Shown: in pieces, positions 502 to 64,000 of the stretch
Layout: every line of letters starts with the position of its first letter
How positions within the stretch are numbered: position 1 is the first letter of the stretch
Source: Antedon mediterranea
Lineage: Eukaryota; Animalia; Echinodermata
Reading direction: 5' to 3'
Length of the DNA: 64,000 nt
Assembly: GCF_964355755.1 (NCBI RefSeq)
Contig: NC_092672.1
Location: forward strand, 3,968,001-4,032,000
Notes under the pieces: generated by a model
The model's input: only the letters and a program-made list of their open reading frames with translations
The model's database searches: none
What the model was told of the DNA's origin: nothing
Made by a program: the position numbers and the translations under genes

Positions 502-2169
502 ATGTATCTCAGGTAAGTAAATTGTTATTTTAGGTTTTAATAATATTTAGGATGATATATGGTGCTACTGTACTTTAGCACTGCTACTCTGTACTTTGAC
601 ATACTGTCTTTTACTGTAGTACTAATTTGTTAGAATTCTGTAACCTTCCTTGTATAGTATATGTTGGCTGTGGGAAGGAAAAACAATATTAAAACACACA
701 AAAGGTACAATATGGGTCATGTGTACTCCAGTTAGGAATGAAATACAACTGAAGATCATTTAATACAAGTCAATTTCTGTTATTCTTTTACCATTAATGT
801 TCTATTTAGCATATCTGAAATCATTTTTTTTATACATTAACATTTTGTCACCGATTATTGTAAACTGGAGTCCATTCTAAACACAGTGAAATGAGCTGTT
901 AGGAGCTCAATGTTATAAGACATTATGTGATAGGCTGGCCAATTCCTTTCCATGCCGTATTATGCTTCCTAACATTTTCAATCAGGTACTCATTTACAGC
1001 TGAGCTGTTCTTATTGGGAAATTAACTTGGGTCTTATATCATATTCAAACATCTTGTTTGGCTTAGTTATGTTTTTTCCTTGTACAACTGGACAGCCAGG
1101 CTGCTTCTTGGTCCTGAGAATCGTATGTATGCTGTGAAATAAAAGGGTTGCAGAATGCTGGCTAATGATGACATCATGATCAGTGTGCAAAACATACTTT
1201 GACGAAACTCTGCTAGACAATGACTAATGGATTGCAACCTTTTTTTTAAATGAAAGGGGTATTTTTATAAATATGGTAGATTGGAAGAGTGCAATTATTA
1301 CTAAAATTTTTTCGAGGGGAAAAAGTTAACTTACAGTTTTTATATTGAATTTCAGATTTAATATGATGTTAACAATTGTGATACAGATTAGTATAATCTA
1401 TGTCATCAAATCAGCAGCTCAAACCAATTCTGAAGCTTGTAATAGCTGTTGTACAGCTGGGGTTCCTGGCATTCCAGGAAATCATGGTAATCCAGGTGCA
1501 ATAGGGCCACAAGGAATGAATGGAATACAAGGAATGAAAGGAGAACAAGGAATTAATGGAGAACAAGGAATTAATGGAGAACAAGGAATTAATGGAGAAC
1601 AAGGAATAAAAGGAGAACAAGGATTGAATGGAGAACAGGGAATGAAAGGAGATAATGGAAGCAATGGCTTAGATGGGATTCCTGGTAAATTAGGACCAAA
1701 AGGACCTCAAGGCCTCATTGGACTACCAGGTGCAAATGGTGTAAAAGGAGAAAAGGGTGAACAAGCTAGTCAGCAGAAATCTGCTTTTTCAGTAGTTTTT
1801 ACATCAAACCCAGGTCGTCACGCCATTAGCCCAATGAAGTACGACACAATAATTTCAAATGTAGGAAATCCCTACAACAAAGAAACAGGAAAGTTTGTCT
1901 GTACAATTCCAGGTGTTTATGTATTCCAGGTGACATCAATGAAATCAACTGGTGGAAAAATTCTAACAGCAATCAAGAAAAATGGGAATATTCAAATGAC
2001 CACAAGGATGGATGCTGCTGGGTATAATTCTGCAAGTACAATGGTGGTTCTTGATCTGGTATCAGGTGATGAAGTTTGGACTGAGCCATATAATTCAGGC
2101 ACTAACTATTACCAAAGTGACAGCAACAGATACTGCTCATTTTCTGGTTTCTTACTTTATGCAGCATAA
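502..2169 (+). CDS. C1qDC gene 1: secreted collagen + gC1q (C1q/TNF-related-like) protein, join(502..512,1356..2169), 274 aa, 34 Gly-X-Y
   Basis: ATGTATCTCAG|GTAAGT ... TTTCAG|A gives [14 protein letters not shown]. Hydrophobic signal peptide, CNSCC motif, Gly-X-Y run, gC1q motifs ([40 protein letters not shown]). Confidence 0.93.
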
Positions 2170-3840
2170 AGTAAACATACAAATACATGTATTGCTTTAA
2201 TCAATTAATTTGCAAATAGGCATAAAAAAAAGGGTAAAAAATCAGACTTTGAATACTGTAGGCTATTTTGCAGTTTTAATTAATCACTTCCATAGAAGAA
2301 CAAATGTTAAAAATAATGCTTTTACTTATAAAAAAACCCCCCAAATATACAGTTAAATTTAACCACAAACCCATTGGCTGGCAGGAAATTCACCTATTTC
2401 CACCCCACCCATTTTTGGTCAAAGTAAATAACTATTACATTAACATTTTCTTTTAGAAAGGTTAGTGATTTTTTATGTGAATTTTACTTACCAGTTAAAA
2501 AATTATAGATTTAACATTTATTTCATTCAAACTAAATGTTGTAAGTATATTTTAGAAATAAAAATATTAATATTCCGTATTTTGAGTGGATCATTATGTT
2601 GAACTATGAACTATATATGGTATAATTGTTTATGTGAGGTGAGAAAGTTGGATAAAAATCAAAGCCTCTTCTTTTTTTTAAAGTTTTTAATTCTTTGCTT
2701 GGCACACTTTATTTTATAAAATTCATATGAATCATAATATTGCTCATGACGACACTGGAAACCAGTTTGTTACAACTCGACATATAACTTTGCATAAAAT
2801 ATAAAACAGAACTGAACGTTAGAGGAAACATACCGTTAGAGGAAACAATAAACTCTGATAAAAAGAATTAAATATTTGACATACTACAAAAAATGCACTA
2901 AACATAAAAGAAAACATAACAAAATGGTAAAAAATACTGAAGAAGATTTTGAAAACTATGAAAACTAGAGAAATAAAAACACCTCCAAAATATTTAGACG
3001 AATTATATACCAAAGAAATATGAAGAGGCTTAAAAACAGGATCAATCATATTAATATTGACTACAGTAAAAAACAAAATATGGAAACATAACATTTACAT
3101 ATGTTGTTTTACATACTGTAATGGGATGAATAATATAAATATTTGAGTACAGTAAGAAATATGTTAATATAACATTAAATATTCTGTTTTACATACTCTG
3201 TATGTGGGACAAATTATATAAATATTTGACTACATTTACATATTTTGTTTTGCATACTACTGTAATGGACAAATTATATTTATGTTTGGCTGGAGTAAGT
3301 AACAATGCTCTTCAGTGTAAGAACTGACATGAATGCGCATACACACTTTTTAAGAAACACGAAGCATCAAGTTGATTGACGTTCAGAAATAGACCAATCA
3401 GTATCTTCCTATTATTTTACCTGATGGGAAGAATTAGTAATTATCTATGTTCACATGTGAGAGGGAGGTAACTTCACAAAAACTGCGGAAGTCATCGGAT
3501 ATTGAAGTTTTGATTAGTAATCCGGTTTGAATATGTTCCCTTTCCTAATGTTATTTTAACACAAAGAGCCGGTCTAATAAAGGTACTTGTTTGTTTAAAA
3601 AAAAACATTTAACAAGTTCAAAAGTCGTGGGAATCGCATGATATGTCCTGTATAATATCAGCAAATGGACAAATTAGGGAGTTTTCGATTGCAAAATGAC
3701 AACATATTGTTTACACGTGAGGAACAGATTTCATCTATAAAAGTCGAGTGAAAATTGAAACTGGATTTATTCATACAACAGCAGATGACAGGGAAACATC
3801 CAGTTTACAGATCAACAGAAAAGACATCCAGAATACAACA

Positions 3841-5451
3841 ATGTATCTCCGGTAAGTAAATTGTTATTTTAGCTTTTAATAATATTTAGGATATTTGGTG
3901 CTACTGTACTTTGGCACTGCTACTCTGTACTTTGACATTACTGTCTTTTACCGTAGTACTGATTTGTTAGAATTCTGTAACCTTCCTTGTATATGTTGCC
4001 GGTGGGAAGGAAAAAACAATATTAAAACACACAGAAGGTACAATATGGGTGTACTCCAGTTAGGAATGCAATACAACTGAAGATCATTTAATACAAGTCA
4101 ATTTCTGTTTAAATATTCTTTTACCATTGTGTTCTATTTAGCATATCTGAAATCATTTTTTTTTATACATTAACATTTTGTCACCGATTATTGTAAGGTA
4201 AACTGGAGTCCATTCTAAACACAGTTTAATGAGCTGTTAAGACTTAGCATTATGTGTTTCCACGCTGTATTATCCTTCCTAACATGTACTCATTTACAGC
4301 TGAGCTGTTCTTATTGGGAAATTAACTTGGGTCTTATACTGTATAATATCATATTCAAACTTTTTGGTAGGCTTAGTTATGTTTTTTCCTTGTACAACTG
4401 GACAGCCAGGCTGCTTCTTGATCTTGGGAATCTTATGTAGGCTGTGAAATAAAAGGGTTGCAGAATGCTGGCTAATGATGACATCATGATCAGTGTGCAA
4501 AACCTACTTTGACGAAACTCTGCTAGACAATGACTAATGGATTGCCTTTTTTAAAAATTTAATAAAAAGGGTATTTTTATAAGTATGGTAGATATGATGC
4601 AATTATTACTAAAATGTGTTAGGAGAAAAAGTTAACATACAGTTTTTATATTGAATTTCAGATTTAATATGATGTTAACAATTGTGATACAGATTAGTAT
4701 AATCTATGTCATCAAATCCGCAGCTCAAACCAATTCTGAAGCTTGTAATAGCTGTTGTACAGCTGGGGTTCCTGGTATTCCAGGAAATCATGGAAATCCA
4801 GGTGCAGCAGGGCCACAAGGAATGAGTGGAGTGAAAGGAGAACAAGGAATGAATGGAGAACAAGGAATGAAAGGAGAACAAGGATTGAATGGAGAACAAG
4901 GAATGAAAGGAGAACAAGGAATGAATGGAGATAATGGAAGCAATGGCTTAGATGGGACTCCTGGAAAGTTAGGACCAACTGGACCCCAAGGTATTGTTGG
5001 ATTACCAGGTGCAAATGGTGTAAAGGGAGAAAAGGGTGAACAATCTAGTCAGAAGAAATCTGCTTTTTCAGTAGTTTTTACTACAGACCCAGGTCGTCAT
5101 GCCATTAGCCCAATGAAGTATAACACAATAATTACAGATGTAGGAAATCACTACAACAAAGAAACAGGCAAGTTTGTCTGTACAATTCCAGGTGTTTATG
5201 TATTCCAGGTGACACCAATGAAATCAAGTGGTGGTGGTCAAATTTTAACAAGAATCATGAAAAATGGCCATATTCAAATGTCTGCATGGATGAGTGCTTC
5301 AGGGTATAATTCTGTAAGCACAATGGTGGTTCTTGATCTGATATCAGGTGATCAAGTATGGACTCAGCCAGGTAGTTCAAACACTAACTATTACCTCAGT
5401 GACGGCAACAGATTCTGCTCATTCTCTGGTTTCTTACTTTATGCAGCATAA
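3841..5451 (+). CDS. C1qDC gene 2, join(3841..3851,4662..5451), 266 aa, 31 Gly-X-Y
   Basis: Same 11-nt first coding exon (ATGTATCTCCG|GTAAGT), phase-2 intron, open collagen + gC1q exon. Confidence 0.93.
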
Positions 5452-7249: not shown

Positions 7250-9025
7250 ATGTATCTCCGGTAAGTAAATTGTTCTTTAAGCTTTTAATAATATTTAGGA
7301 TGATATTTGGTGCTACTGTACTTTAGCACTGCTACTCTGTACTTTGACATTACTGTCTTTTACTGTAGTACTGATTTGTTAGAATTCTGTAACCTTCCTT
7401 GAACATGTTGGCAGTGAGAAGGAAAAACAATATTAAAACACACAAAAGGTACAATATGGGTCGTGTGTACTCCAGTTAGGAATGCAATACAACTGAAGAT
7501 CATTTAATACAAGTCAATTTCTGTTTAAATATTCTTTTACCATTGTGTTCTATTAGCCTATTTGAGATTATTTTATTATATACCTTAACATTTTGTCACC
7601 GATGTGAAATTATTGTAAGGCAAACTGAAGTCCATTCTAAAAAAAGTGGAATAAGCTGTTAGGAGCTCAACGTAATAAGCCTTAGCATTACGTGGTAGGC
7701 TGGCCAGGTCCTTTCCATGTCGCCTTATCCTTCGTAGCATTTTCAATCAGATACTCATTTACAGCTGAGTTGTTTTTATCTGGAAATTAGCTTGGGTCTT
7801 TCTGTATGATAGTCAAGTGTCCAACCACTCAGCTACCAAACTTCTTCGGCTAACAAATTATTATAAATATCATATTTAAAACTTCTTGTTGGGCTTAGTT
7901 ATGTTGTTTCCTTGTACAACTGGACAGCTTATTGCTCCAGGGAGAATCGTATGTAGGCTGTGAAATAAAAGGATTACAGAATGCTGGCTGATGAACATAC
8001 TTTGAAAAAACCCTGCTTGACAATGATTGATTCCAAACATTTTTTTTTACAAAATTTTAATACGGGGTATTTTTTGCTTCATTTTGATATAAACAAGTTT
8101 GGTTGATAAGAGTGTAATTATTACTGAATGTGTTAAGGGGTATAATTAATAATAACATACAGTGTTTATATTGAATTTCAGATTTAATATGATATTAACA
8201 ATGGTGATACAGATTAGTATAATCTATGTCATCAAATCAGCAGCTCAAACCAATTCTGAAGCTTGTAATAGCTGTTGTACAGCTGGGGTTCCTGGCATTC
8301 CAGGAAATCATGGAAATCCAGGTACATCAGGGCCACAAGGAATGAATGGAGAAAAAGGAATGAATGGAGTGAAAGGAGAACAAGGAATGAATGGAGAACA
8401 AGGATTGAAAGGAGATAATGGAAGGAATGGAGAACAAGGAATGAATGGAGAACAAGGAATGACAGGAGACCCGGGAATGAAAGGAGAACAAGGAATAACA
8501 GGAGATGATGGAAGGAATGGCTTAGATGGGTCTCCTGGAAAGTTAGGACCAACTGGACCTCAAGGCCTCATTGGACTACCAGGTACAAATGGTGTAAAAG
8601 GAGAAAAGGGTGAACAAGCTAGTCAGCAGAAATCTGCCTTTTCAGTATTTTTTACATCAAACCCAGGTCGTCATGCCGTTAGCCCAATGAAGTATAACAC
8701 AGTAATTACAGATGTAGGAAATCACTACAACAAAGAAACAGGAAAGTTTGTCTGTGAAATTCCAGGTGTTTATGTATTCCAGGTGACATCAATGAAATCA
8801 AATGGTAGTGGTAAAATTTTAACAAGAATCATGAAAAATGGCAATAATCAAATGTCTGCATGGATGAGTGCTTCAGGGCATAATTCTGTAAGTACAATGG
8901 TGGTTCTTGATCTGGTATCAGGTGATCAAGTATGGACTCAGCCACATAGTTCAAGCCATAACTATTACTACAGTGACAGTGACAGATACTGCTCATTCTC
9001 TGGTTTCTTACTTTATGCAGCATAA
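7250..9025 (+). CDS. C1qDC gene 3, join(7250..7260,8182..9025), 284 aa, 37 Gly-X-Y
   Basis: Same exon/intron layout; ORF 8162..9025 contains exon 2. Confidence 0.93.
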
Positions 9026-12517: not shown

Positions 12518-14761
12518 ATGTATCTCCGGTAAGTAAATTGTTATTTAAGCTTTTAATAATATTTAGGATGATATTTGGTGCTACTGTACTTTCACACTGC
12601 TACTCTGTACTTTGACATTACTGTCTTTAGTACTGATTTGTTAGAATTCTGTAACCTTCCTTGTACATGTTGGCAATGAGAAGGAAAAAACAATATTAAA
12701 ACACACAAAAGGTACAATATGTGTGTACTCCAGTTAGGAATGCAATACAACTGAAGATCATTTAATACAAGTCAATTTCTGTTTAAATATTCTTTTACCA
12801 TTGTGTTCTATTAGCCTATTTGAGATTATTTTATTATATACATTAACATTTTGTCACCGATGTGAAATTATTGTAAGGCAAACTGAAGTCCATTCTAAAA
12901 AAAGTGGAATGAGCTGTTAGGAGCTCAACGTAATAAGCCTTAGCATTACGTGGTAGGCTGGCCAGGTCCTTTCCATGTCGCCTTATCCTTCGTAGCATTT
13001 TCAATCAGGTACTCATTTACAGCTGAGTTGTTCTTATCGGGAAATTAACTTGGATCTTTCTGTATGATAGTGAAGTGTCTAACCACTCAGCTACCAAACT
13101 TCTTTGGTTAACAAATTATTATATAATATCATATTCAAAACTTCTTGTTGGGACCAGACTGGTTGGGACAGCCAGGCCGCTTCTTGGTCCTGGGAGAATC
13201 GTATGTAGGCTGTGAAATAAAAGGTTTACAGAATGCTTAAAGGACGTGTGGCGCAGTGTGTTGGACATTGGATTACTGATCGTGAGATCCAACTCTCACC
13301 ACATTGCTAGATCCTTAGGCAAGATACTTTATTTACATTTGCCTCTCTCCACACAGGTGTATAAATGGGTATAGACTTACGTCATTTGGTATAAACTCTG
13401 CAATAATGTCGTCCTTCTATAGCTCAGTTATAGAGTGTCATAACATATTCTTTAACGGTATGGTTCGGTAGCGCTACTGAAAATGAAAAGCGTGACCTAA
13501 ATAGAATAGTCAAGACGTATAAATGGATCTGCACAATTGCCTTTGGAGAACATATTTTCGGATCGTCTTCTGAAAAAGGCAGTGGCTATCAAAGATGATG
13601 AATTTCATCCGGTATGTTCCAGTTGATGCGCAGCGGTCGGCGACTTCATTCTATTAAGGCCAATAAGGCACGATTTACAAATAGTTTCTTTCCAGGAGCT
13701 ATTAGAGCCTTAAACATCATGTAGACAGTTTTTGTAATGTTTTTGTTTTGAGTTTGTGTTGTGTCCGTTGGATATTGTGCTCCGCACACAGAGCAAACAG
13801 AATTTCTATGTTTTTTTCTCAAAACAAATGACAATAAATGATACTTGACTTGACTTGGCGCTATATAAAAACGAATATTATTAATGCTGGCTCGATGACG
13901 ATATCACGATCAGCAAAATAAACTTTGACGAAACCCTGCTTGACAATGATTAATTGATTTAATTTTAAAAATGTTATAAAAAGAGCATTTTTATAAATAT
14001 AGTATAGATAAGATTGCAATTACTAAAATGAGTTAGAAGGTAAAAAAAGCTAACATACAGTTTTTATATTGAATTTCAGAGTAAATATGATGTTAACAAT
14101 TGTGATACAGATTAGTATAATCTATGTCATAAAATCAGCAGCTCAAATCAATTCTGAAGCTTGTAATAGCTGTTGTACAGTTGTGGTTCCTGGTATTCCA
14201 GGAAACCATGGTAATCCAGGTGTGTCAGGGCCACAAGGAATGAATGGAGAGAAGGGAAGGAATGGCTTAGATGGGATTCCTGGTAAATTAGGACCACAAG
14301 GCCTCATTGGACTACCAGGTACAAATGGTGTAAAAGGAGAAAAAGGTGAACAATCTAGTCAGAAGAAATCTGCTTTTTCAGTATTTTTTACATCAAACCC
14401 AGGTCGTCATGACACTAGCCCAATGAAGTATGACACAATAATTACAGATGTTGGAAATCATTACAACAAAGAAACAGGCAAGTTTGTCTGTACAATTCCA
14501 GGTGTTTATGTATTCCAGGTGACATCAATGAAATCAAGTGGTAGTGGTAAACTTAAAACAAGAATCATGAAAAATGGGAATGTTCAAATGTCTGCACAGA
14601 TGGATGCTGATGGGTATAATTCTGCAAGCACAATGGTGGTTCTTGATTTAGTATCAGGTGATGAAGTATGGACTCAGCCAGGTAGTCCAAGCTATAACTA
14701 TTACCACAGTAGCAGCCTAAGATACTGCTCATTCTCTGGTTTCTTACTTTATGCAGCATAA
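12518..14761 (+). CDS. C1qDC gene 4, join(12518..12528,14080..14761), 230 aa, shortest collagen (18 Gly-X-Y; first Gly changed to Val)
   Basis: Open reading frame with intact gC1q domain; intron lengthened by a SINE/LINE insert; promoter motifs degenerate. Confidence 0.88.
13238..13882 (+). mobile_element. tRNA-headed CORE-like SINE in intron of gene 4, interrupted by a LINE fragment
   Basis: A-box-like TGGCGCAGTG head; CCTTAGGCAAGATACTT...GCCTCTCTCCACACAGGTGTATAAATGGGTA (CORE-like); tail GGCGCTATATAAAA..TATTATT; AATGCT duplicated; absent from paralogous introns. Confidence 0.65.
13373..13857 (+). mobile_element. 5'-truncated Rex1/Babar-type (CR1-group) LINE 3' fragment
   Basis: Frameshifted translation RLTSFGINSAIMSSFYSSVIE..ITYSLTVWFGSATENEKRDLNRIVKT...FQLMRSGRRLHSIKANKARFTNSFFPGAIRALN matches the post-RT (DUF1891-like) region; ends AATAAA + (CTTGA)n. 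Confidence 0.75.
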
Positions 14762-19806: not shown

Positions 19807-19919
19807 CTTTAAATCAGAACAAACAAAATAAATTATATTATTTGGAATATTTTTGTATTTTCAAATTGATTTCCCTAATATTTTTTTTGCATTTATTAAA
19901 AAAAAAAAATATTGATTAG

Positions 19920-20045
19920 TATGTCCTTATCCGAGAAGACCACTAGGATTATGGCTGTGGAGTGCCTTGAACATGTGCTGATTTTATGGCTATGGTTGGC
20001 AGCGCCTCTGCCTTAAACCGCTTGATACTCAGCTGATGTAACTCT
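19920..20045 (-). mobile_element. Possible decayed tRNA-derived SINE (copies ~29755-29875, ~42600-42730)
   Basis: Minus strand AGCTGAGT(G)ATCAAGCGGTTTAAGGC (A-box/D-arm-like) and GTTCAAG (B-box-like); GC-richer than flanks. Confidence 0.3.
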
Positions 20046-21947: not shown

Positions 21948-22258
21948 AGATGTATTGTCCCCCAAAACATGAAAAATAAAGATTAATTAAATCAGACTTT
22001 GAATATGTGATTTAATAATTCCGTAGAAAAAACCCGAAAAAAAACCCAATGTTTTCACTTATAAATTGACAAAATAAATGGTCAAAATCAATCAAAAACC
22101 CATTGGCGGCCAGCTATTTTGACCACTTTTTATTTTAAATTACAGGTAAATACATTTTTTTCGATCCAATTTCTGGTCAAAGTGGAACTATTATGTGACA
22201 TTAAAATGGAATATTCAACAAAAATCTTGTTGAGAATTTTCAGGGGGACAATACATCT
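21948..22258. mobile_element. Kolobok-type MITE (copies 31787..32090, 44725..45125)
   Basis: TTAA|AGATGTATTGTCCCC ... GGGGACAATACATCT|TTAA: perfect 15-bp TIR, TTAA TSD, RR..YY termini. Confidence 0.85.
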
Positions 22259-45248: not shown

Positions 45249-45358
45249 AGCTTGTATTAAAGGTCTGTGTGTATTGAAAATCTATACAGTTTAGTTGGTT
45301 ATGTAATGGTATGAATGTCGCAGGTTCAAATCTTACCAGAGACATTTTTTTAATTTAA

Positions 45359-48379: not shown

Positions 48380-50022
48380 ATGTATCTCCGGTAAGTAAAT
48401 TGTTATTTAAGCTTTTAATAATATTTAGGATGATATTTGGTGCTACTGTACTTTAGCACTGCTCCTCTGTACTTTGACATTACTGTCTTTTACTGTAGTA
48501 CTGATTTGTTAGAATTCTGTAACCTTCCTTGTATATGTTGCCGGTGGGAAGGAAAAAACAATATTAAAACACACAGAAGGTACAGTATGGGTATACTCTA
48601 GTTAGGAATGCAATACAACTGAAGATCATTTAATACAAGTCAATTTCTGTTTAAATATTCTTTTACCATTAATGTTCTATTTAGCATATCTGAAATCATT
48701 TTTTTTTATACATTAACATTTTGTCACCGATTATTGTAAGGTAAACTGGAGTCCATTCTAAACACAGTGAAATGAGCTGTTAGGATCTCAATGTAATAAG
48801 ACATTATGTGATAGGCTGGCCAATTCCTTTCCATGCCGTATTATGCTTCCTAACATTTTCAATCAGGTACTCATTTACAGCTGACCTGTTGTTATTGGGA
48901 AATTAACTTGGGTCTTATATCATATTCAAACATCTTGTTTGGCTTAGTTTTGTTTTTTCCTTGTACAACTGGACAGCCAGACCGCTTCTTGGTCCTGAGA
49001 ATCGTATGTAGGCTGTGAAATAAAAGGGTTGCAGAATGCTGGCTGATGATGACATCATGATCAGTGTGCAAAACATACTTTGACGAAACTCTGACTAATG
49101 GATTGCAACCTTTTTTTTAAATGAAAGGGGTATTTTTATAAATATGGTAGATTGGAAGAGTGCAATTATTACTAAAAATTTTTAGAGGGGAAAAAGTTAA
49201 CTTACAGTTTTTATATTGAATTTCAGATTTAATTTGATGTTAACAATTGTGATACAGATTAGTATAATCTATGTCATCAAATCAGCAGCTCAAACCAATT
49301 CTGAAGCTTGTAATAGCTGTTGTACAGCTGGGGTTCCTGGCATTCCAGGAAATCATGGTAATCCAGGTGCAATAGGGCCACAAGGAATGAATGGAATACA
49401 AGGAATGAAAGGAGAACAAGGAATTAATGGAGAACAAGGAATTAATGGAGAACAAGGAATAAAAGGAGAACAAGGATTGAATGGAGAACAAGGAATGAAA
49501 GGAGATAATGGAAGCAATGGCTTAGATGGGACTCCTGGAAAGTTAGGACCAACTGGACCTCAAGGCCTCATTGGACTACCAGGTGCAAATGGTGTAAAAG
49601 GAGAAAAGGGTGAACAAGCTAGTCAGCAGAAATCTGCCTTTACAGCAGTTTATACATCAGACCCAGGTCGTCCTATTGGTCCATTAAAATATGACACAAT
49701 AATTACAGATGTAGGAAATCACTACAACAAAGAAACAGGCAAGTTTGTCTGTGCCATTCCAGGTGTTTATGTATTCCAGGTGACATCAACAAAATCACAA
49801 GGTGGTCGTCAAATTGTAACAAGAATCATGAAAAATAGGAATATTCAAATGTCCACAAGGATGAGTGCTGATGGGTTGAATTCTATAAGCACAATGGTGG
49901 TTCTTAATCTAGTATCAGGTGATGAAGTATGGATTCAGCCAGTTAGTTCAATCGATAACTATTACTGCAGTAGCGGTGCAAGATACTGCTCATTCTCTGG
50001 TTTCTTTCTTTATCCAGCATAA
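48380..50022 (+). CDS. C1qDC gene 8, join(48380..48390,49227..50022), 268 aa, 32 Gly-X-Y; most divergent head domain
   Basis: Same layout; [19 protein letters not shown] and [19 protein letters not shown] differ from all paralogs. Confidence 0.92.
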
Positions 50023-51587: not shown

Positions 51588-53916
51588 ATGTATCTCTGGT
51601 AAGTAAATTGTTATTTAAGCTTTTAATAATATTTAGGATGATATTTGGTGCTACTGTACTTTCTCACTGCTACTCTGTACTTTGACATTACTGTCTTTTA
51701 CTGTAGTACTGATTTGTTAGAATTCTGTAACCTTCTTTGAACATGTTGGCAATGAGAAGGAAAAACAATATTAAAACACACAGAAGGTACAATATGGGTG
51801 TACTCCAGTTAGGAATGCAATACAACTGAAGATCATTTAATACAAGTCAATTTCTGTTTAAATGTTCTTTTACCATTGTGTTCTATTAGCCTATTTGAGA
51901 TTATTTTATTATATACATTAACATTTTGTCACCGATGTGAAATTATTGTAAGGCAAACTGAAGTCCATTCTAAAAAAAGTGGAATGAGCTGTTAGGAGCT
52001 CAACGTAATAAGCCTTAGCATTACGTGGTAGGCTGGCCAGGTCCTTTCCATGTCGCCTTATCCTTCGTAGCATTTTCAATCAGGTACTCATTTACAGCTG
52101 AGTTGTTCTTATCGGGAAATTAACTTGGGTCTTTCTGTATGATAGTGAAGTGTCTAACCACTCAGCTACCAAACTTCTTTGGTTAACAAATTATTATATA
52201 ATATCATATTCAAAACTTCTTGTTGGGACCAGACTGGTTGGGACAGCCAGGCCGCTTCTTGGTCCTGGGAGAATCGTATGTAGGCTGTGAAATAAAAGGT
52301 TTACAGAATGCTTAAAGGACGTGTGGCGCAGTGTGTTGGACATTGGATTACTGATCGTGAGATCCAACTCTCACCACATTGCTAGATCCTTAGGCAAGAT
52401 ACTTTATTTACATTTGCCTCTCTCCACACAGGTGTATAAATGGGTATAGACTTACGTCATTTGGTATAAACTCTGCAATAATGTCGTCCTTCTATAGCTC
52501 AGTTATAGAGTGTCATAACATATTCTTTAACGGTATGGTTCGGTAGCGCTACTGAAAATGAAAAGCGTGACCTAAATAGAATAGTCAAGACGTATAAATG
52601 GATCTGCACAATTGCCTTTGGAGAACATATTTTCGGATCGTCTTCTGAAAAAGGCAGTGGCTATCAAAGATGATGAATTTCATCCGGTATGTTCCAGTTG
52701 ATGCGCAGCGGTCGGCGACTTCATTCTATTAAGGCCAATAAGGCACGATTTACAAATAGTTTCTTTCCAGGAGCTATTAGAGCCTTAAACATCATGTAGA
52801 CAGTTTTTGTAATGTTTTTGTTTTGAGTTTGTGTTGTGTCCGTTGGATATTGTGCTCCGCACACAGAGCAAACAGAATTTCTATGTTTTTTTCTCAAAAC
52901 AAATGACAATAAATGATACTTGACTTGACTTGGCGCTATATAAAAACGAATATTATTAATGCTGGCTCGATGACGATATCACGATCAGCAAAATAAACTT
53001 TGACGAAACCCTGCTTGACAATGATTAATTGATTTAATTTTAAAAATGTTATAAAAAGAGCATTTTTATAAATATAGTATAGATAAGATTGCAATTAATA
53101 AAATGAGTTAGAAGGTAAAAAAAGCTAACATACAGTTTTTATATTGAATTTCAGAGTAAATATGATGTTAACAATTGTGATACAGATTAGTATAATCTAT
53201 GTCATAAAATCAGCAGCTCAAACCAATTCTGAAGCTTGTAATAGCTGTTGTACAGCTGGGGTTCCTGGCATTCCAGGAAATCATGGTAATCCAGGTGTAT
53301 CAGGGCCACAAGGACTGAAAGGAGAACAAGGAATAAATGGAGAAGAAGGAATTAATGGAGAACAAGGAATGAAAGGAGAACAAGGAATGAATGGAGATAA
53401 TGGAAGAAATGGCTTAGATGGGATTCCCGGTAAATTAGGACCAAAAGGACCTCAAGGCCTCATTGGACTACCAGGTGCAAATGGTGTAAAAGGAGAAAAG
53501 GGTGAACAAGCTAGTCAGCAGAAATCTGCCTTTTCAGTAGTTTTTACATCAGACCCAGGTCGTCATGCCACTAGCAAATGAAGTATAACACAATAATTAC
53601 AGATGTAGGAAATCACTACAACAAAGAAACAGGCAAGTTTGTCTGTGCAATTCCAGGTGTTTATGTTTTCCAGGTGACATCAATGAAATCAAGTGGTAGT
53701 GGTAAAATTGTAACAAGAATCATGAAAAATGGCAATATTCAAATGTCTGCATGGATGAGTGCTTCAGGGTATAATTCTGTAAGCACAATGGTGGTTCTTG
53801 ATCTAGTATCAGGTGATGAAGTATGGACTCAGCCAGCTGGTTCAACCTCTAACTATTACCACAGTGACATTGGAAGATACTGCTCATTCTCTGGTTTCTT
53901 AATTTATGCAGCATAA
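51588..53916 (+). pseudogene. C1qDC gene 9, disabled: exons 51588..51598 and 53155..53916, 28 Gly-X-Y
   Basis: The splice junction creates a stop (CTC TG|A, where paralogs have CG|A or AG|A). A 1-nt loss at ~53576 (AGC-AA-ATG vs AGC-CCA-ATG) shifts frame at the start of gC1q. Confidence 0.85.
52313..52957 (+). mobile_element. Duplicate of the SINE + Rex1/Babar LINE composite, in intron of gene 9
   Basis: Essentially identical to 13238..13882, with the same AATGCT TSD and position. Confidence 0.75.
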
Positions 53917-55754
53917 AGTAAACATAAACAAATACTTGTTTATTAAATTAATTTGCAAATAGGCATCTAGAAGTCAAACTATATAAATGACACAAGCTAA
54001 ATTTAATATTATATTATTTTTGCAATTATTGATTATTTCTGCTTGAGATGCAACAGTTTAGATGAATGATGTCAATTTTACCAGTTAAAAAATTATAGAT
54101 ATAACATTTATTTCATTTGAGGAACTAAATTGTTTAAATACATTGTTAGAAATAAAATATTAATATTCAGTATTTTGAGTAAATCTATGTTATGTTGAAC
54201 TATGCAGGCGGTTCAATTTCTTTTGGCCTATTCACACTCAAATCAGTCCTAAATCAGGAAGGTTTTAGCAAATTCATCCACTACAATTCTAAATTAATTA
54301 ATGAAAGACTGTCAACACTCAGTAGTTTGACATTTGACCTGCAAAAACAGGTTTTACACATTTATTAACCCATGGCTGGTAGTAGTACTGCACAAAGATT
54401 ATACTTAGAAATATATCAGTATGGGTAACTCAATCAAAGCCTCTTCTTTTTTTTTTTTGGTTGAGTTTTGAATTCTTTCCTTGGCACACTTTACTTATAA
54501 AATTCATATGAATCGCAATATTGCTCATGACGACACCAAAACCAGTTTGTTACAACTTGATATATAACTTTTGAATAAAATACAGAACTGAACATACTTT
54601 TAAACTCTGTCTACACTATCACATTATTTTAACAAAATATGGTAGTAATATGCCAAAATATGGTCATCGTATCCATATATGGGCAAATCAATTTTTTTTG
54701 TCACAAACTTTGATAATGTAGACAGAGTTTTAGATGAAACAATGATAGAAAAATTATCCCATGACCAATTATAGGAATATAGTACATTCGGAATAGACTA
54801 CACTACTTTAGAATACTTACTGACAATTCCCTAGAAATTGGGCGTGGTTTCCAGACATCGTTACCGACGCCATTCAGCGTTATAGTCCAGATCCCTATGT
54901 ATTTTCGTGTGCAGATCATGGGGAAAGTGTAAACATTGTGTTTTATGAATATTTGAATCATGCTGGTTATAAAAACCCATGTTGTCAAATTTCTAAAATT
55001 TATCTTTGACCTCTGACCTCAATTTGAATGTTTTGACCCATTGAAAACAAAATGATCATATCTTTGCAACGCGTGGATTAAATGAAATAATTTTAGTGTC
55101 AAATTATTTGGGAGATGCATATTAATATTCGTTCTAATGGAAAAGTTTGTCCAAAAATGGCTGAAGTATGATTTTTGGCATATTTGACCTTTGACCTACA
55201 TATCATATAACTCCGTAACTAATAGTTGGACAAACTTAAAATAGGGCTCAAATTAATCTGAAGGTATATGTTTCTATTCAGTCTAATAAGAACTTTTACA
55301 AGAAAATGACCCAAAATCTTGTTATTGACCTTTGACCTGTACAGGTAGTACATATTTCTATAATCTCAAAAACTATGGGCCGTAAAATGGTTGTTTTTGT
55401 GAAATTGTTTGAACAATTTACATTTATATGTTGTATAATAACAACATTTTATAGAAATGTAAAAGAATTCTATTCATGATCACTAACTTTATAATTTATT
55501 AACATCACTAGCATTTGTTATAATATTAAAATGTGTTATATTTGCTGATTTTAAGCACTTCCCATGAATTTATCAGAATTATGTGTATTTAATATAAAGT
55601 TTGTTTTTTTTTTATATATAAAGAAAATTTAATTGTCTATCAAATAAGACTATTTTCAAATTATTATGGCTAAAACTTAATTAGATACAGGCAAAAAAGT
55701 GTATTTTTACTTGTGTGAACAGCGTCCTCAATCTTCATTTTTTCCCCAAAAATA

Positions 55755-58712
55755 TACGAAAGCCCATTAATGCCATTTGAAGTATATGTTTTTCGAACGT
55801 AATCCGTTCTAACGAATTAGTAATTCGTTTGAACGGATTAATAATCTGTTCAAACGAATTAGTAATCCGTTCAAACGAATTGCAACATATACAACAAGTG
55901 CCATTTAAAGTACATGTTGTAATTCGTTTAAACGGATTACTAATCCGTTCAAACGAATTACTAATTTGTTTAAACGGATTACTAATTTGTTCAAACGAAT
56001 TACTAAATTCGTTCAAACGAATTACTAATTTGTTTAAACGGATTACTAATTTGTTTAAACAAATTAATAATTTGTTTAAACGGATTACTAATTCGTTCAA
56101 AAGGAATTAGTAATCCGTTTAAACAAATTAATAATTTGTTTAAACAAATTAATATAAGTTGTTTAAACGGATTACTAATCTGTTTGAACGAATTAGTAAT
56201 TCGTTTCAACGAATTAGTAATTTGTTTAAACAAATTAATAATTTGTTTAAACGGATTACTAATTCGTTTAAACGAATTAGTAATTCGTTTAAACAGATTA
56301 GTAAGCCGTTTAAACAAATTACTAATCCGTTTGGACGGATTCCTAATTCGTTTGAACAGATTTAATCTGTTTAAACAAATTAGTAATTCGTTTGAACGGA
56401 TTAGTAATCTGTTCAAACGAATTAGTAATCCGTTCAAACCAATTGCAACATATACAACAAGTGCCATTTAAAGAATATGTACGAAAGCCCATTAATGCCA
56501 TTTTAAGTATATGTTTTTCGAACGTAATCCGTTCTAACGAATTAGTAATTCGTTTGAACGGATTAATAATCTGTTCAAACGAATTAGTAATCCATTCAAA
56601 CGAATTGCAACATATACAACAAGTGCCATTTAAAGTATATGTTGTAATTCGTTTGAACGGATTACTAATCCGTTCAAACAAATTACTAATTTGTTTAAAT
56701 GGATTACTAATTTGTTCAAACGGATTACTAATCCGTTCAAACAAATTACTAATTTGTTTAAACGGATTACTAATTCGTTCAAACGAATTACTAATTTGTT
56801 TAAACGGATTAGTAATCCGTTCAAACGAATTACTAATTCGTTCAAACGAATTAGTAATCCGTTTAAACGAATTAATAATTTGTTTAAACAAATTAATAAT
56901 TTGTTTAAACGGATTACTAATCTGTTTGAACAAATTAGTAATTCGTTTGAACGAACTAGTAATCCGTTTAAACAAATTATTAATTTGTTTAAACAAATTA
57001 ATAATTTGTTCAAACGGATTACTAATTCGTTAGAACGAATTAGTAATTCGTTTGAACAAATTAGTAATCCGTTTAAACAAATTACTAATCCGTTTGAACG
57101 GATTCCTAATTCGTTTTAACAGATTATTAATCTGTTTAAACAAATTAGTAATTCGTTTGAACGGATTAGTAATCCGTTCAAACGAATTACAACATATTCT
57201 TTAAATGGCACTTGTTGTATATGTTGCAATTGGTTTGAACAGATTACTAATTCGTTTGAACAGATTACTAATCCGTTCAAACGAATTACTAATTTGTTTA
57301 AACAGATTAATAATCTGTTCAAACGAATTAGGAATCCGTCCAAACGGATTACTAATTTGTTTAAACGGATTACTAATCTGTTTAAACGAATTACTAATTC
57401 GTTTAAACGAATTAGTAATCCGTTTAAACAAATTATTAATTTGTTTAAACAAATTAATAATTTGTTTAAACAAATTACTAATTTGTTTAAACAGATTACT
57501 AATTCGTTCAAACGAATTACTAATTCGTTCAAACAGATTAGTAATCCGTTTAAACAAATTATTAATTTGTTTAAACAAATTATTAATTTGTTTAAACGGA
57601 TTACTAATTCGTTTGAACGAATTAGTAATCCGTTTAAACAAATTATTAATTCGTTTAAACAAATTAGTAATCCGTTTAAACAAATTAGTAATTCGTTTGA
57701 ACGAATTAGTAATTCGTTTGAACAAATTAGTAATCCGTTTGAACAAATTAGTAATTCGTTTGAACGGATTAGTAATCCGTTTAAACGAATTACAACATAT
57801 ACTTTAAATGGCACTTGTTGTATATGTTGCAATTCGTTTGAACGGATTACTAATTCGTTTGAACAGATTATTAATCCGTTCAAACGAATTACTAATTCGT
57901 TAGAACGGATTACGTTCGAAAAACATATACTTAAAATGGCATTAATGGGCTTTCGTAATTATGTTGTAATTCGTTTGAACGGATTACTAATCTGTTCAAA
58001 CGAATTACTAATTTGTTTAAACAGATTAATAATCTGTTCAAACGGATTAGTAATTTGTTTAAACGGATTACTAATTTGTTCAAACGAATTACTAATTCGT
58101 TCTAACGAATTAGTAATCCGTTTGAACAAATTATTAATTTGTTTAAACAAATTAATAATTTGTTTAAACGGATTACTAATTCGTTCAAACGAATTACTAA
58201 TTTGTTCAAACAGATTAATAATCCGTTTAAACAAATTATTAAACAAATTATTAATTCGTTTAAACGGATTACTAATTCGTTTGAACGAATTAGTAATTCG
58301 TTTGAACGGATTACTAATCCGTTTAAACAAATTAGTAATTCGTTTGAACGAATTAGTAATCCGTTTAAACAAATTAGTAATTCGTTTGAACGGATTAGTA
58401 ATCCGTTTGAACAAATTAGTAATCCGTTTAAACAAATTAGTAATTTGTTTGAACGGATTAGTAATCCGTTCAAACGAATTACAACATATACTTTAAATGG
58501 CACTTGTTGTATATGTTGCAATTCGTTTGAACGGATTACTAATTCGTTTGAACAGATTATTAATCCGTTCAAACGAATTACTAATTCGTTATAACGGATT
58601 ACGTTCGAAAAACATATACTTAAAATGGCATTAATGGGCTTTCGTACTAATTCGTTAGAACGGATTACGTTCGATAAACATATACTTAAAATGGCATTAA
58701 TGGGCTTTCGTA
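55755..58712. mobile_element. Composite of IS3EU-like 21-bp-repeat elements (self-nested; doubled right end at 58646 and 58712)
   Basis: TIR TACGAAAGCCCATTAATGCCATTT... at 55755 and 56480; its reverse complement ends at 57957, 58646 and 58712. Confidence 0.8.
56480..57957. mobile_element. IS3EU-like element inserted in inverted orientation inside another copy of itself
   Basis: AATATG|TACG...CGTA|ATTATG (6-bp TSD, one mismatch) interrupts the internal motif TTAAAGAATATGTTGTAATT. Confidence 0.75.
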
Positions 58713-59028
58713 TAATTTTGAGCTAAAAGTTCATCTTTTTGGTTTAATAAAAGCTATCTAGCAGATATTAATACACACAATTCATATTTTATTGGATAGA
58801 TATTATGATTATCTTTCCAATAAAATATGCTGTTTGTGTAAGAATGGCTGTACAAGATTGTTTGTACTGGACCAAAAAGATGGATTTTTAGCACAAAATC
58901 AAAATCTTTTTTAGCATGCACCATGTAATAACCTCAGGAAAAATGTCAAGCTATCGAAATATTTTTCTCATTTTTTTTCATAAACTGACCTAGTACGTTA
59001 TAAAAGTGGTATGTAAATTACAGGTTAC

Positions 59029-60233
59029 TACGAAAGCCCATTAATGCCATTTTAAGTATATGTTTTTCGAACGTAATCCGTTATAACGAATTAGTAATTC
59101 GTTTGAACGGATTAATAATCTGTTCAAACGAATTAGTAATCCGTTCAAACGAATTGCAACATATACAACAAGTGCCATTTAAAGTATATGTTGTAATTCG
59201 TTTAAACGGATTACTAATCCGTTCAAACGAATTACTAATTTGTTTAAACGGATTACTAATTTGTTCAAACGAATTACTAATTCGTTCAAACGAATTACTA
59301 ATTTGTTTAAACGGATTACTAATTTGTTTAAACGAATTAATAATTTGTTTAAACGGATTACTAATTCGTTCAAACGAATTAGTAATCCGTTTAAACAAAT
59401 TAATAATTTGTTTAAACAAATTAATAATTTGTTTAAACGGATTACTAATCTGTTTGAACGAATTAGTAATTCGTTTGAACGGATTAGTAATCTGTTCAAA
59501 CGAATTAGTAATCCGTTCAAACCAATTGCAACATATACAACAAGTGCCATTTAAAGAATATGTTGTAATTCGTTTGAACGGATTACTAATCTGTTCAAAC
59601 GAATTACTAATTTGTTTAAACAGATTAATAATCTGTTAAAACGAATTAGGAATCCGTTCAAACGGATTAGTAATTTGTTTAAACGGATTACTAATTTGTT
59701 CAAACGAATTACTAATTCGTTCTAACGAATTAGTAATCCGTTTGAACAAATTATTAATTTGTTTAAACAAATTAATAATTTGTTTAAACGGATTACTAAT
59801 TCGTTCAAACGAATTACTAATTTGTTCAAACAGATTAATAATCCGTTTAAACAAATTATTAATTTGTTTAAACAAATTATTAATTCGTTTAAACGGATTA
59901 CTAATTCGTTTGAATGAATTAGTAATTCGTTTGAACGGATTACTAATCCGTTTAAACAAATTAGTAATTCGTTTGAACGAATTAGTAATCCGTTTAAACA
60001 AATTAGTAATTCGTTTGAACGAATTAGTAATCCGTTTAAACAAATTAGTAATTCGTTTGAACGGATTAGTAATCCGTTTGAACAAATTAGTAATCCGTTT
60101 AAACAAATTAGTAATTAACAGATTATTAATCCGTTCAAACGAATTATTAATCCGTTCAAACGAATTACTAATTCGTTATAACGGATTACGTTCGAAAAAC
60201 ATATACTTAAAATGGCATTAATGGGCTTTCGTA
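59029..60233. mobile_element. IS3EU-like non-autonomous element filled with 21-bp repeats
   Basis: GGTTAC|TACGAAAG...CTTTCGTA|GGTTAC. Confidence 0.85.
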
Positions 60234-62264
60234 GGTTACTGTAAATAATCAGTAAAACAAAGTTATAACCTGTTAAGTTTATGAAACCACATAAAAATGT
60301 GGTATTTTGAGCGGAAAATGAAGATTGAGGGCGCTGTTTACACAAGTAAAAAAATACACCTTTTTGCCTGTATCTAATTAAGTTTTAGCCATATTAATTT
60401 GAAAATGGTCTTATTTGATAGATAATTAAATTTTCTTTATGTCAAAAAAATAAAACTTTATATTTAAATACACATAATTCTGATAAATTCATGTGAAGTG
60501 CTTAAAATCAGCAAATTTAATATTATAACAAATGCTTACAAAGTTGGTGATCATAAATAAAATTATTTTACATTTCTATAAAATGTTGTTATTATACAAC
60601 ATATGAATGTAAATTTTTCGAACAATTTCACCAAAAAAAACCTTTTACGGCCAATAGTTTTAAGACTGTAGGAATGTGTACTACCTGTACAGGTCAAAGG
60701 TCAATAAGAAGATTTTGGGTCATTTTCTTGTAAAAGTTCTTATTAGACTGAATAGAAACATATACCTTCAGATTAATTTGAGCCCTATTTAAAGTTTGTC
60801 CAACTATTAGTTACGGAGTTATATGATATGTAGGTCAAAGGTAAAAAATGCCAAAAATCATACTTCCGGCCATTTTTGGACAAACTTTTCCATTAGAACG
60901 AATATTAATATTTCATTAATTATTTCATTTAAAATAAGCGTTGCAAAGATATGACCATTTTGTTTTCAATGGGTCAAAACATTCAAATTGAGGTCAGAGG
61001 TCAAAGATGAATTTTAGAAATTTGACAACATGGGTTTTTATAACCAGCATGATTCAATTATTCATAAAACACAATGTTTACACTTTCCCCATGATCTGCA
61101 CACGAAGGCACTTTTTTTGACATAGGGATCTGGACTATTAGCTCCTGACACGTTTTTGGCAATTTCCTCTTCAAATAAACAGTTGGCGGTGTCTGTTTAG
61201 AGAGAACCTTTTCAAAAGACATACCGACAAAAAACTCCATTCTTTTTAATGTTGCTAGGCAGCTTAGTCTTGCACATGGATCTTTACAGAGTAACTACAG
61301 GAAAAAAAAAAAGTGATCATAAAGAAAAACTGATAAACTACCAGAGACTATTGGGTTATCCAAGTTCAGGCTGTTTTATACTGCAATAAAGAACGTATAG
61401 TTTGATTACAAAGATAAAAACGTGGTATTATTAAGGAACTATCAATCTGCGACAATCTAGTTGTGTTGCCAAAATAGTGTCCAAAAATGAATGTTCAAAG
61501 AGAATGTTGCACTGAATAAAGATGGCATAACTACAGTAATTCCTAGTTCATTAATTATGAGATGAGAATTAAAAAATTTAATTACTTAGAAATCAATCAA
61601 CTGTTACCTGAAGAATGACGTCCTGAGCTGGATAACTAACAAATGGAGGTAACTTGAATTCCTTATTTATAACCTTATTATACATCTCAATGTGATTGGT
61701 GGAACCACTTAACGGATATTTACCCGTCATCAAGCAAAACATTATAATGCCGAGTGACCACCAGTCAACACGATGATCATAGTCACCCATATTTAGTACT
61801 TCAGGCGCTGAAAAAATTAAGGTAGATGTTCAGTTGTCCTGTTAAAAAAAAATATTAAAACTATGGTATAAATTTGGAGACTATTACAGAGCAGAATTTA
61901 GATTTGTGACCATGTTTAATTGCGGTGGTCGATATAGGATTTTAAAAAGACGGTAGGGCCGGAAATCAACAAAAGGAAGTTCTGTGCATCTCTCCTATTC
62001 TAGCTTACATTAACTATTAACTACATACTGTATTAACTACGAATTCAGCATTTTATTAATCAATCTAAAAAACTGTCTACCTGTTGAACAATAAACAATT
62101 TTGGATGATATTATTTAAAGATAGCAAAATGATTCACTTACCCTTATTAGAGATAATAATAGATATACAATTACCCACCCATATACATAAGTGTCCCACA
62201 GACACTGGACGTTCTGCCACCTTGCTTCAGCCATTTTGAAAGTCCAAAATCGGACAGAAGTATA

Positions 62265-63721
62265 TACGAAAGCCCATTAATGCCATTTTAAGTATATGTT
62301 TTTCGAACGTAATCCGTTCTAACGAATTAGTAATTCGTTTGAACGGATTAATAATCTGTTCAAACGAATTAGTAATCCGTTCAAACGAATTGCAACATAT
62401 ACAACAAGTGCCATTTAAAGTATATGTTGTAATTCGTTTAAACGGATTACTAATCCGTTCAAACGAATTACTAATTTGTTTAAACGGATTACTAATTTGT
62501 TCAAACGAATTATTAATTCGTTCAAACGAATTACTAATTTGTTTAAACGGATTACTAATTTGTTTAAACGAATTAATAATTTGTTTAAACGGATTACTAA
62601 TTCGTTCAAACGAATTAGTAATCCGTTTAAACAAATTAATAATTTGTTTAAACAAATTAATAATTTGTTTAAACGGATTACTAATCTGTTTGAACGAATT
62701 AGTAATTCGTTTGAACGAATTAATAATCTGTTTAAACAAATTAGTAATTTGTTTAAACAAATTAATAATTTGTTTAAACGGATTACTAATTCGTTTAAAC
62801 GAATTAGTAATTCGTTTAAACAGATTAGTAATCCGTTTAAACAAATTACTAATCCGTTTGGACGGATTCCTAATTCGTTTGAACAGATTATTAATCTGTT
62901 TAAACAAATTAGTAATTCGTTTGAACGGATTAGTAATCTGTTCAAACGAATTAGTAATCCGTTCAAACCAATTGCAACATATACAACAAGTGCCATTTAA
63001 AGAATATGTTGTAATTCGTTTGAACGGATTACTAATCTGTTCAAACGAATTACTAATTTGTTTAAACAGATTAATAATCTGTTAAAACGAATTAGGAATC
63101 CGTTCAAACGGATTAGTAATTTGTTTAAACGGATTACTAATTTGTTCAAACGAATTACTAATTCGTTCTAACGAATTAGTAATCCGTTTGAACAAATTAT
63201 TAATTTGTTTAAACAAATTAATAATTTGTTTAAACGGATTACTAATTCGTTCAAACGAATTACTAATTTGTTCAAACAGATTAATAATCCGTTTAAACAA
63301 ATTATTAATTTGTTTAAACAAATTACTAATTCGTTTAAACGGATTACTAATTCGTTTGAACGAATTAGTAATTCGTTTGAACGGATTACTAATCCGTTTA
63401 AACAAATTAGTAATTCATTTGAACGAATTAGTAATCCGTTTAAACAAATTAGTAATTCGTTTGAACGGATTAGTAATCCGTTTGAACAAATTAGTAATCC
63501 GTTTAAACAAATTAGTAATTTGTTTGAACGGATTAGTAATCCGTTCAAACGAATTACAACATATACTTTGAATGGCACTTGTTGTATATGTTGCAATTCG
63601 TTTGAACGGATTACTAATTCGTTTGAACAGATTATTAATCCGTTCAAACGAATTACTAATTCGTTATAACGGATTACGTTCGAAAAACATATACTTAAAA
63701 TGGCATTAATGGGCTTTCGTA
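62265..63721. mobile_element. IS3EU-like non-autonomous element (1457 bp) inserted in the kinase DFG exon
   Basis: AGTATA|TACGAAAGCCCATTAATG...CATTAATGGGCTTTCGTA|AGTATA; empty site CAGAAGTATATGACC at ~19395 and ~29240; interior is arrays of GTTYRAACRRATTASTAATYY. Confidence 0.9.
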
Positions 63722-64000
63722 AGTATATGACCGCCCTCATAAAGTAAAATATTCTCCATCTGAAAAGAAAAAATGAGTGTTTTTAAATCTTTCAGCCAAG
63801 CCAATTTAAACTCCCTGCCTGTAATTTGCTTCCAGAATCCAGAATTTGAATATGATCACTTTCAACAATCTGCATCTGCTACGAAAATAGAAATAATCAT
63901 AGCAGAAGATGTTTAATAATTAGTTCTTTTATAATAATATATTAATATGCATATATACACACAACAGGCAAAGAACATTAATTCTAAACCGCCCGGTGGT

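Follow-up and report, generated by a model that had tools for sequence, protein, structure and literature searches.

How a fast-expanding family of C1q domain-containing (C1qDC) genes came to lie antisense to the 3' end of an unrelated protein kinase gene, and what each partner has carried along with the other, is the question raised by a 64,000-nucleotide stretch of the crinoid Antedon mediterranea genome (NC_092672.1, positions 3,968,001 to 4,032,000 of the forward strand; hereafter the window, to whose first letter all positions refer). In the reading we prefer, with a probability of about 0.78, the window holds four lesioned tandem 3' halves of an RSKR/S6KL-type kinase gene together with nine antisense C1q genes, and it represents the middle of an array that would have grown by unequal crossover downstream of a single working gene located outside.

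Architecture of the array and identity of the host kinase

Four blocks, designated D, C, B and A from left to right, follow one another along the window, with the kinase on the minus and the C1q genes on the plus strand (Table 1). Each C1q group (four, one, two and two genes in D, C, B and A, respectively; nine in total, eight of them intact) sits behind one kinase exon ending in RELS, with minus-strand donor ends at 15597, 28004, 40448 and 54821 (the last a TCA variant), and an exon encoding FDNFDW, starting at 23987, 33772 or 47493 on the minus strand, closes three of the four groups within the window. In the three closed blocks the intron measures 4016, 6675 and 7327 bp; the first C1q ATG lies 797-887 bp from the terminal-exon acceptor and the last C1q stop 836-1074 bp from the RELS donor. 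The donor reads GTAAGT in 4/4 and the acceptor TTACAG in 3/3 cases, in phase 0 on both sides. With 3-4 mismatches allowed, no further copies of the RELS or FDNFDW motifs occur in the window, which rules out chance matches. The seven motif coordinates given in an initial annotation of this stretch proved exact, and its phase and its gene counts per block (at least four for D) were confirmed.

Both flanking host exons are in view for five of the nine C1q genes, which lie wholly between two consecutive host exons on the opposite strand. For the four genes of block D the donor side alone is in view, the terminal exon of this block lying outside the window; since D1 resembles the first C1q genes of blocks A and B, that exon is probably located a few hundred bases to the left. 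The antisense nesting proposed in the initial annotation thus stands for the stub copies. Its extension to the live kinase is conditional: the hosts in view are, all four, lesioned 3' halves, with the whole gene situated beyond the window, and nesting in a working host is something we infer.

The host was identified from two whole-length models, one from Antedon (P0135, 396 aa) and one from the crinoid Anneissia (P0133, 394 aa). Both end RELS-FDNFDWIRETDL, and because this holds in two crinoid genera, the C1q-bearing intron is the last intron and FDNFDW belongs to the terminal exon, as had been suggested. P0135 matches PF00069 (E=8e-60), its best PDB sequence matches being RSK and S6K1 (E ~1e-55); among the 120 of its 1484 matches listed, relatives are named RSKR, S6KL, SgK494, F31E3.2 or generically, and none carries an S6K or RSK name. 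Assignment to the RSKR/SGK494/S6KL family, in agreement with the RSKR-like identity first proposed, is therefore supported by named relatives and models. The C-terminal hydrophobic motif of AGC kinases has the consensus F-x-x-F-[D/E/S/T]-aromatic. FDNFDW fits it in both crinoids, and 73 of 119 relatives show a loose form of it; four named non-crinoid echinoderm relatives lack the first Phe and keep N-F-D/E-W at the end. Drosophila S6KL is the homologue of human SGK494 (PMC4351882).

The RefSeq cluster of this kinase has eight members, namely one whole (P0135) and six truncated proteins from Antedon, all seven on one 38.96-Mb sequence, as against a single whole member from Anneissia (P0133). 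Models that end in RELSVSILK instead of continuing to FDNFDW do exist (P0132, P0134), but they are stub predictions and not the whole gene. P0135, P0129 and P0130 match no block fully; hence the whole gene and two more stubs lie outside the window, and the minus-strand orientation of the gene would place the whole copy above 64000. The order of accessions hints at one C1q gene and one more stub beyond block A.

None of the 151 six-residue words of kinase residues 1-156 was found in the window, and lesions, one or more per copy, are present in all four kinase halves. Devoid of an N-lobe (Gly loop, catalytic Lys) and with lesioned C-lobes, the four copies do not qualify as active kinases. Stub C is open from the VMDY to the RELS exon, with intact splice sites and four missense changes; B and D share a 37-nt shortening of the VMDY exon, by replacement; in copy A the DFG and RELS exons are each split by an insertion, and the 5' context of this copy falls beyond the window. 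The 30 kinase splice sites in view are nevertheless all intact, though three of the four blocks are frame-broken or split, and AATAAA follows each terminal exon within ~290-460 nt. A candidate for a further kinase exon, near 30335, was discarded, as no P0135 residues map there.

The C1q genes consist of an 11-nt coding exon 1, a 0.8-1.6-kb intron and a single large exon 2, which encodes a signal-like N-terminus, a Cys pair, a collagen region and a globular C1q head (gC1q); the exon 1-exon 2 joint of gene C1 is present in contigs of sequencing run X5. Pfam recognizes PF01391 (collagen) and PF00386 (gC1q, E=2e-25), and the head model (predicted local distance difference test score 97) superimposes with a TM-score of 0.92 on the NC1 domains of collagen X/VIII and on C1QTNF5. 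With the hydrophobic N-terminal stretch judged by eye only, the products are predicted to be secreted and of the collagen-tailed, C1q-like type I. Collagen length differs about five-fold between copies (25997-26425 and the other C1q exons) in a pattern of in-frame 18-bp slippage, which would alter stalk length; predicted proteins span 230 to ~366 residues. Two of the eight intact exon-2 products match a listed RefSeq protein exactly, their sequences being letter-for-letter those of Antedon mediterranea proteins P0009 and P0014, and RefSeq appears to miss or merge several of the others. Nine further, mostly more divergent family members lie outside the window on the same 38.96-Mb sequence (P0010-P0013, P0015-P0018, P0020).

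Duplication, probable exchange and selection

The initial annotation had proposed amplification at two levels, by a unit of ~3.3 kb within the intron and by blocks comprising the kinase 3' half and the intron, and each level is marked by a junction of its own. Within introns, C1q units are spaced 3339, 3409 and 3283 bp apart (3208 bp for the pair in block A, and 5268 bp where insertions intervene), and one 235-bp junction sequence occurs at all five intra-intron C1q boundaries (A, B and D) and nowhere else at length; the 3.3-kb duplication would thus have arisen once. Between blocks, the three spacers from a terminal exon to the next VMDY exon align over ~4 kb and are 3.4-5.0% apart, so that the block junction, too, would have a single origin. 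Each inter-block spacer also contains a short CpG-richer patch (~46500-46700 and equivalents), which may be what is left of a promoter or the end of a transposon.

Superimposed on these junctions is extensive mosaicism. All three two-against-two partitions of the blocks occur, in runs, and the nearest neighbour of each C1q gene changes from promoter to intron to head; the blocks further differ in insertions and in C1q number and are 2-15% apart in aligned non-coding stretches. Shuffled patterns of this kind typically stem from unequal crossover with gene conversion. Taken together, these sequence comparisons point to two founding duplications followed by unequal crossover. Both processes have been described for the human RCCX locus (PMC8362596), and ongoing unequal crossover has been proposed for oyster C1qDC arrays (PMC6835236).

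The stub exons are far more conserved in protein sequence than their lesions would lead one to expect. Across the four blocks, 203 codons (counted without indels, without the stretch deleted in block C and without the damaged portion of the VMDY exon) contain 7 nonsynonymous against 15 synonymous alleles, corresponding to a ratio of replacement to silent rates (omega) of 0.12 (binomial p=1.9e-6), with pairwise differences of 4.5-8.8% at silent and 0.4-1.3% at replacement sites; adding three further missense and no silent changes leaves the deficit at p=2e-5. A neutral passenger is expected to accumulate about four amino-acid changes per silent change. To describe the stubs as passengers, as the initial annotation did, is too simple in view of this deficit. 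Given the mosaic tracts, the deficit most probably stems from ongoing exchange with the live gene, in which silent variants would pass both ways and replacements would be purged in the live copy and overwritten in the stubs.

Contigs from the sequencing runs are consistent with such exchange. Over the RELS exon an X5 contig differs from block C at 1 of 218 letters (the other blocks differ from C by 4-6 or more), while the X5 untranslated region (UTR) matches block A at 6/6 listed sites (C 0, B 3), with one other letter and one gap in 255; an RELS exon closest to C and a UTR closest to A are in line with exchange between copies. One X9 terminal-exon contig has a 7-letter gap of the size of block B's deletion, the position of the gap not being located.

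The same runs bear on the splicing of the kinase. X5 and X9 were called RNA-like by guess from their spliced contigs, no run listed as matching being on record as RNA, which says nothing about expression. In X5, a 340-nt contig follows the UTR and the terminal exon and halts at the acceptor with 30 letters over, and the first letter of a second contig falls precisely on the RELS donor. A 742-nt contig of X9 joins the APE and RELS exons without their intron, with 29 letters next to the RELS donor left unplaced; the terminal-exon acceptor marks the end of two further X9 contigs. An overlap of ~30 letters between neighbouring contigs is what a 31-letter word graph produces at a splice branch. Contigs of the DNA-like run X1 pass unspliced through both boundaries. 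The RELS|FDNF junction is thus strongly implied by contig ends. Contig depth was considered as a measure of copy number or of expression level and rejected for both.

In the eight intact C1q genes, omega is 0.29 in the N-terminal part (below 1, p=0.014), 0.21 at the collagen end (below 1, p=0.001) and 0.82 in the head, with 94 nonsynonymous to 32 synonymous changes in the head against 15 to 19 in the stalk (Fisher p=0.0015). Head changes cluster in four putative apex loops, assigned from an adiponectin alignment, predicted strands and the known gC1q topology. This pattern fits relaxed or diversifying selection on a putative binding surface, and the product under selection is likely a set of secreted C1q-type proteins whose stalks are conserved and whose heads vary, with a probable role in ligand recognition. 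Invertebrate C1qDC proteins are for the most part considered pattern-recognition molecules (PMC10672478).

Proposed origin of the array and alternative explanations

The origin that we consider best supported would begin with the entry of a two-exon C1q gene into the last intron of RSKR in the Antedon lineage, its promoter coming to lie ~0.8-0.9 kb from the terminal exon. Near enough the whole intron would then have duplicated once as a 3.3-kb unit, a step whose junction is present in the window and whose place in the order is conjectural. The segment from the intron preceding the VMDY exon to beyond the 3' UTR, likewise marked by its junction, would have duplicated once, producing a stub with neither promoter nor N-lobe and with a full C1q cargo. 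Unequal crossover and gene conversion at both levels could subsequently have altered the gene counts and shuffled the pieces into the mosaic observed. Lastly, exchange with the working gene would refill the stubs with selected exon sequence, so that silent differences exceed amino-acid changes despite a lesion in every stub.

Entry into RSKR looks specific to this lineage. In a tree of heads, the 18 Antedon sequences (nine from the window and nine RefSeq proteins from the same sequence) group apart from the main Anneissia group, with support of 93/90 (not starred) for the Antedon and 95/93 for the Anneissia clade; its interior is unresolved and was not used for the order of events. Both genera have thus expanded the C1q family separately. 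None of 18 Anneissia C1q relatives (among 120 of 331 matches listed) lies on a contig as long as the one that carries Anneissia RSKR, their contigs having nine other lengths, so that the nesting would be younger than the Antedon-Anneissia split. In runs of a second organism, the acceptor-side intron leads on to the C1q upstream repeat and the terminal exon is present in three versions; this organism probably shares the nested arrangement. A metagenome scan with a crinoid C1q alignment returned one locus among 132 candidates, of 1.2 kb and 31% identity, which is uninformative.

Several points weigh against the origin outlined above. The working gene and its last intron lie outside the window analysed. 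Exchange with the live gene would require that ~5-9% silent diversity flow through the array. The RELS|FDNF joint itself was not directly read, and X5 also contains unspliced contigs across the kinase introns (28140-30270), which may represent DNA, pre-mRNA, stub transcripts or antisense C1q read-through. As regards the heads, an omega of 1.11 in the apex loops is not significantly above 1 (p=0.42), which does not demonstrate diversifying selection, and the difference between the apex and the rest of the head is not significant (p=0.15). Finally, intact splice sites throughout and the open frame of C leave room for direct use of stub exons.

This last point underlies the foremost alternative, in which the kinase halves are functional alternative 3' cassettes, upstream N-lobe exons being spliced onto a downstream block after read-through and purifying selection acting on the halves directly. 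The low omega among stubs, the 30 intact splice sites, the open block C and the closeness of the X5 RELS contig to it would all suit such cassettes. Blocks A, B and D, however, cannot give a whole C-lobe, and block C is one codon short just after the catalytic loop and carries four missense changes, whereas in the X9 contig 118 letters remain for the DFG exon, its undeleted length. The AATAAA past each terminal exon also speaks against read-through to a further block, and the low omega is already explained by the mosaic tracts; we therefore regard direct use of the cassettes as unlikely. Equally doubtful is a broader version, in which the halves would form a bank of swappable C-lobe cassettes spliced to or recombining with a shared N-lobe, in an array built by selection on C1q number. 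If it were true, expansion of a recognition gene would drive the diversification of an unrelated host kinase.

Somewhat less probable again is that part of the array is a false duplication, with two divergent haplotypes of a shorter array assembled in tandem. The heads of D1 and B1 are indeed 1.2% apart, the 3' ends of the D4 and A2 introns 0.5% apart, and one lesion is common to B and D; but four window blocks and seven RefSeq kinase models exceed two haplotypes, the blocks differ in insertions, in C1q number and by the non-coding divergence given above, and near-identity is patchy, the partner switching along a gene. Runs X6 and X7, moreover, each contain three distinct terminal-exon versions, and a false duplication would at most change the count and not the architecture. 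That the C1q genes are interleaved with dead stubs only, the working RSKR having lost or never had an intronic C1q, would suit the position of the working gene outside the window and the 0/18 Anneissia relatives on the RSKR contig, but is very improbable, as all three terminal exons adjoin a C1q promoter and all four RELS donors a C1q 3' flank, an X1 DNA contig with 5/6 listed X5 UTR alleles extends through the acceptor and reaches the C1q upstream repeat, and, as no more than a hint, the accession numbers of the whole kinase and C1q B1 in RefSeq differ by two.

Besides the kinase and C1q genes, the window contains numerous insertions. That at 54883-61137 is a non-autonomous element with termini starting TAG, which we take to resemble Academ or PIF/Harbinger types. 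A family of miniature inverted-repeat transposable elements (MITEs; 55756-58711, 59030-60232 and 62266-63720) has terminal inverted repeats in common, as well as 21-bp tandem arrays in its interior. Target duplications of 8 bp cleanly flank two copies, which would suggest a hAT-like parent, and those clustered at 55.7-58.7 kb are either nested or rearranged. The translations of insertions at 41390-41764 and at ~13230-13880 / 52310-52960, the latter common to C1q genes D4 and A2, resemble by eye the 3' ends of long interspersed nuclear elements of the CR1/L2 type; a Pfam search of two insertion open reading frames, including that at 41390-41764, gave no match. Block-specific insertions of ~1.8 kb between D3 and D4 (9540-11300, with GC-rich ends) and of ~2.5 kb in the DFG-APE intron of block D (16740-19285, with internal direct repeats) were also found, together with a short palindromic repeat of very high copy number (27590-27930, 30390-30560 and equivalents), whose 21-bp unit reaches 10.5 copies in block C.

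Table 1. Features of the window, in the order of their positions.
Feature	Position	Strand	Remarks
C1q D1	502..2169	+	intact
C1q-unit junction sequence	2816..3071		copies at 6125, 11504, 36853, 50649; 89-97% identical
C1q D2	3841..5451	+	intact
C1q D3	7250..9025	+	intact
C1q D4	12518..14761	+	intact; exon 2 identical to RefSeq XP_071943994.1 (P0014)
Kinase stub D	15597..19806	-	RefSeq model P0131 matches 181/181 residues
Exons of stub D	VMDY 19695-19806, DFG 19319-19436, APE 16187-16386, RELS 15597-15813		VMDY 37 nt short; RELS 1 nt too long
Spacer C-to-D	19807..23948	-	terminal-exon 3' UTR and downstream flank joined to intron before VMDY exon
Terminal kinase exon, block C	23949..23987	-	FDNFDW...stop
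C1q C1	24840..26930	+	intact; long collagen array, ~25 copies of 18-bp unit
Kinase stub C	28004..29679	-	RefSeq model P0134 matches 231/231 residues
Exons of stub C	VMDY 29531-29679, DFG 29163-29277, APE 28590-28789, RELS 28004-28219		one codon missing in DFG
Terminal kinase exon, block B	33734..33772	-	
C1q B1	34569..36167	+	intact; exon 2 identical to RefSeq XP_071945254.1 (P0009)
C1q B2	37852..39558	+	intact
Kinase stub B	40448..42491	-	RefSeq model P0132 matches 200/200 residues
Exons of stub B	VMDY 42380-42491, DFG 42004-42121, APE 41004-41203, RELS 40448-40663		VMDY 37 nt short
Terminal kinase exon, block A	47455..47493	-	with UTR, closest window match to X5 RNA-like contig
C1q A1	48380..50022	+	intact; head most divergent of set
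C1q A2 pseudogene	51588..53916	+	stop at exon 1/exon 2 codon; frameshift near 53580
Kinase copy A	54821..63759	-	RefSeq model P0001 matches 184/233 residues; other 49 = VMDY exon beyond 64000
Exons of copy A	DFG 63721-63759 + 62179-62265, APE 61608-61807, RELS 61138-61294 + 54821-54882		
Insertion in block A RELS exon	54883..61137	.	6.25 kb; inverted arms ~870 bp (87.6% identical), TTA target duplication, nested MITE copies
MITE-like insertion in block A DFG exon	62266..63720	.	1.45 kb; terminal inverted repeats, 21-bp tandem array, 8-bp target duplication

Comparison with known systems

No prior description of the Antedon locus was found in the literature searched, most subscription papers and supplements being outside its coverage, and the titles listed on RSKR, nested-gene expansion and truncated arrays included no matching case. 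The locus illustrates a cost of nesting: a fast-expanding gene that resides within the last intron of a conserved kinase readily takes host exons with it when it duplicates, and the host becomes open to exchange with the broken copies, as are CYP21A2 and TNXB in human RCCX. The array may serve as a small natural experiment on concerted evolution under a selective filter, a process expected to leave pseudogene exons with the appearance of constraint. There is also a warning for annotation, six RefSeq 'RSKR-like' proteins being stubs.

The whole Antedon kinase has RSKR, SGK494 and Drosophila S6KL as named relatives across animals; unlike these, the four window copies have no residues 1-156, and none could form a kinase on its own. 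The C1q cargo resembles bivalve C1qDC arrays in its domain family and in its same-strand tandem clusters, whereas oyster C1qDC genes have no collagen tail, no type I protein was found among them and no host gene is co-amplified; the word 'nested' does not occur in that paper (PMC6835236). Among crinoids, the OXYL lectins are likewise secreted C1q-domain proteins with several paralogues, but they have no collagen region and their genes are intronless (PMC6409975). The presence of both a collagen region and an intron places the Antedon genes in a C1qDC group different from the OXYL-like lectins of the secreted globular-head (sghC1qDC) type.

Nesting followed by joint duplication has a precedent in the LRRTM genes of alpha-catenin introns, where an opposite-strand guest also entered an intron of an unrelated host and was then co-duplicated (PMC3933685). 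There, whole host-guest pairs were duplicated and persisted, whereas in Antedon the 3' half of the host alone was duplicated, in tandem, and the guest multiplied inside the intron.

The closest parallel, by analogy and not by homology, is the human RCCX locus (STK19-C4-CYP21-TNX), which is also a tandem multi-gene module with an amplified complement gene beside truncated genes (PMC8362596). In its extra modules, a gene with a kinase name is reduced to a 3' piece of 914 bases (STK19B), and the opposite-strand TNXA is likewise truncated; modules are gained or lost by unequal crossover, and live and dead copies exchange sequence through gene conversion (PMC8362596). Tandem modules, a truncated passenger and signs of exchange between copies, which are features of an RCCX-type modular locus, are all found in the Antedon array. 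The two differ in that the amplified genes of RCCX flank or overlap the truncated ones, whereas the Antedon cargo lies inside the last intron of its host and has its own 3.3-kb level of amplification, and in that at least six stubs are present in Antedon as compared with usually one or two in RCCX. Nested antisense genes, tandem C1qDC arrays and modules with a truncated kinase passenger have each been described separately; what lifts the Antedon array above the routine is the two-level structure within a host gene, combined with stubs that look constrained.

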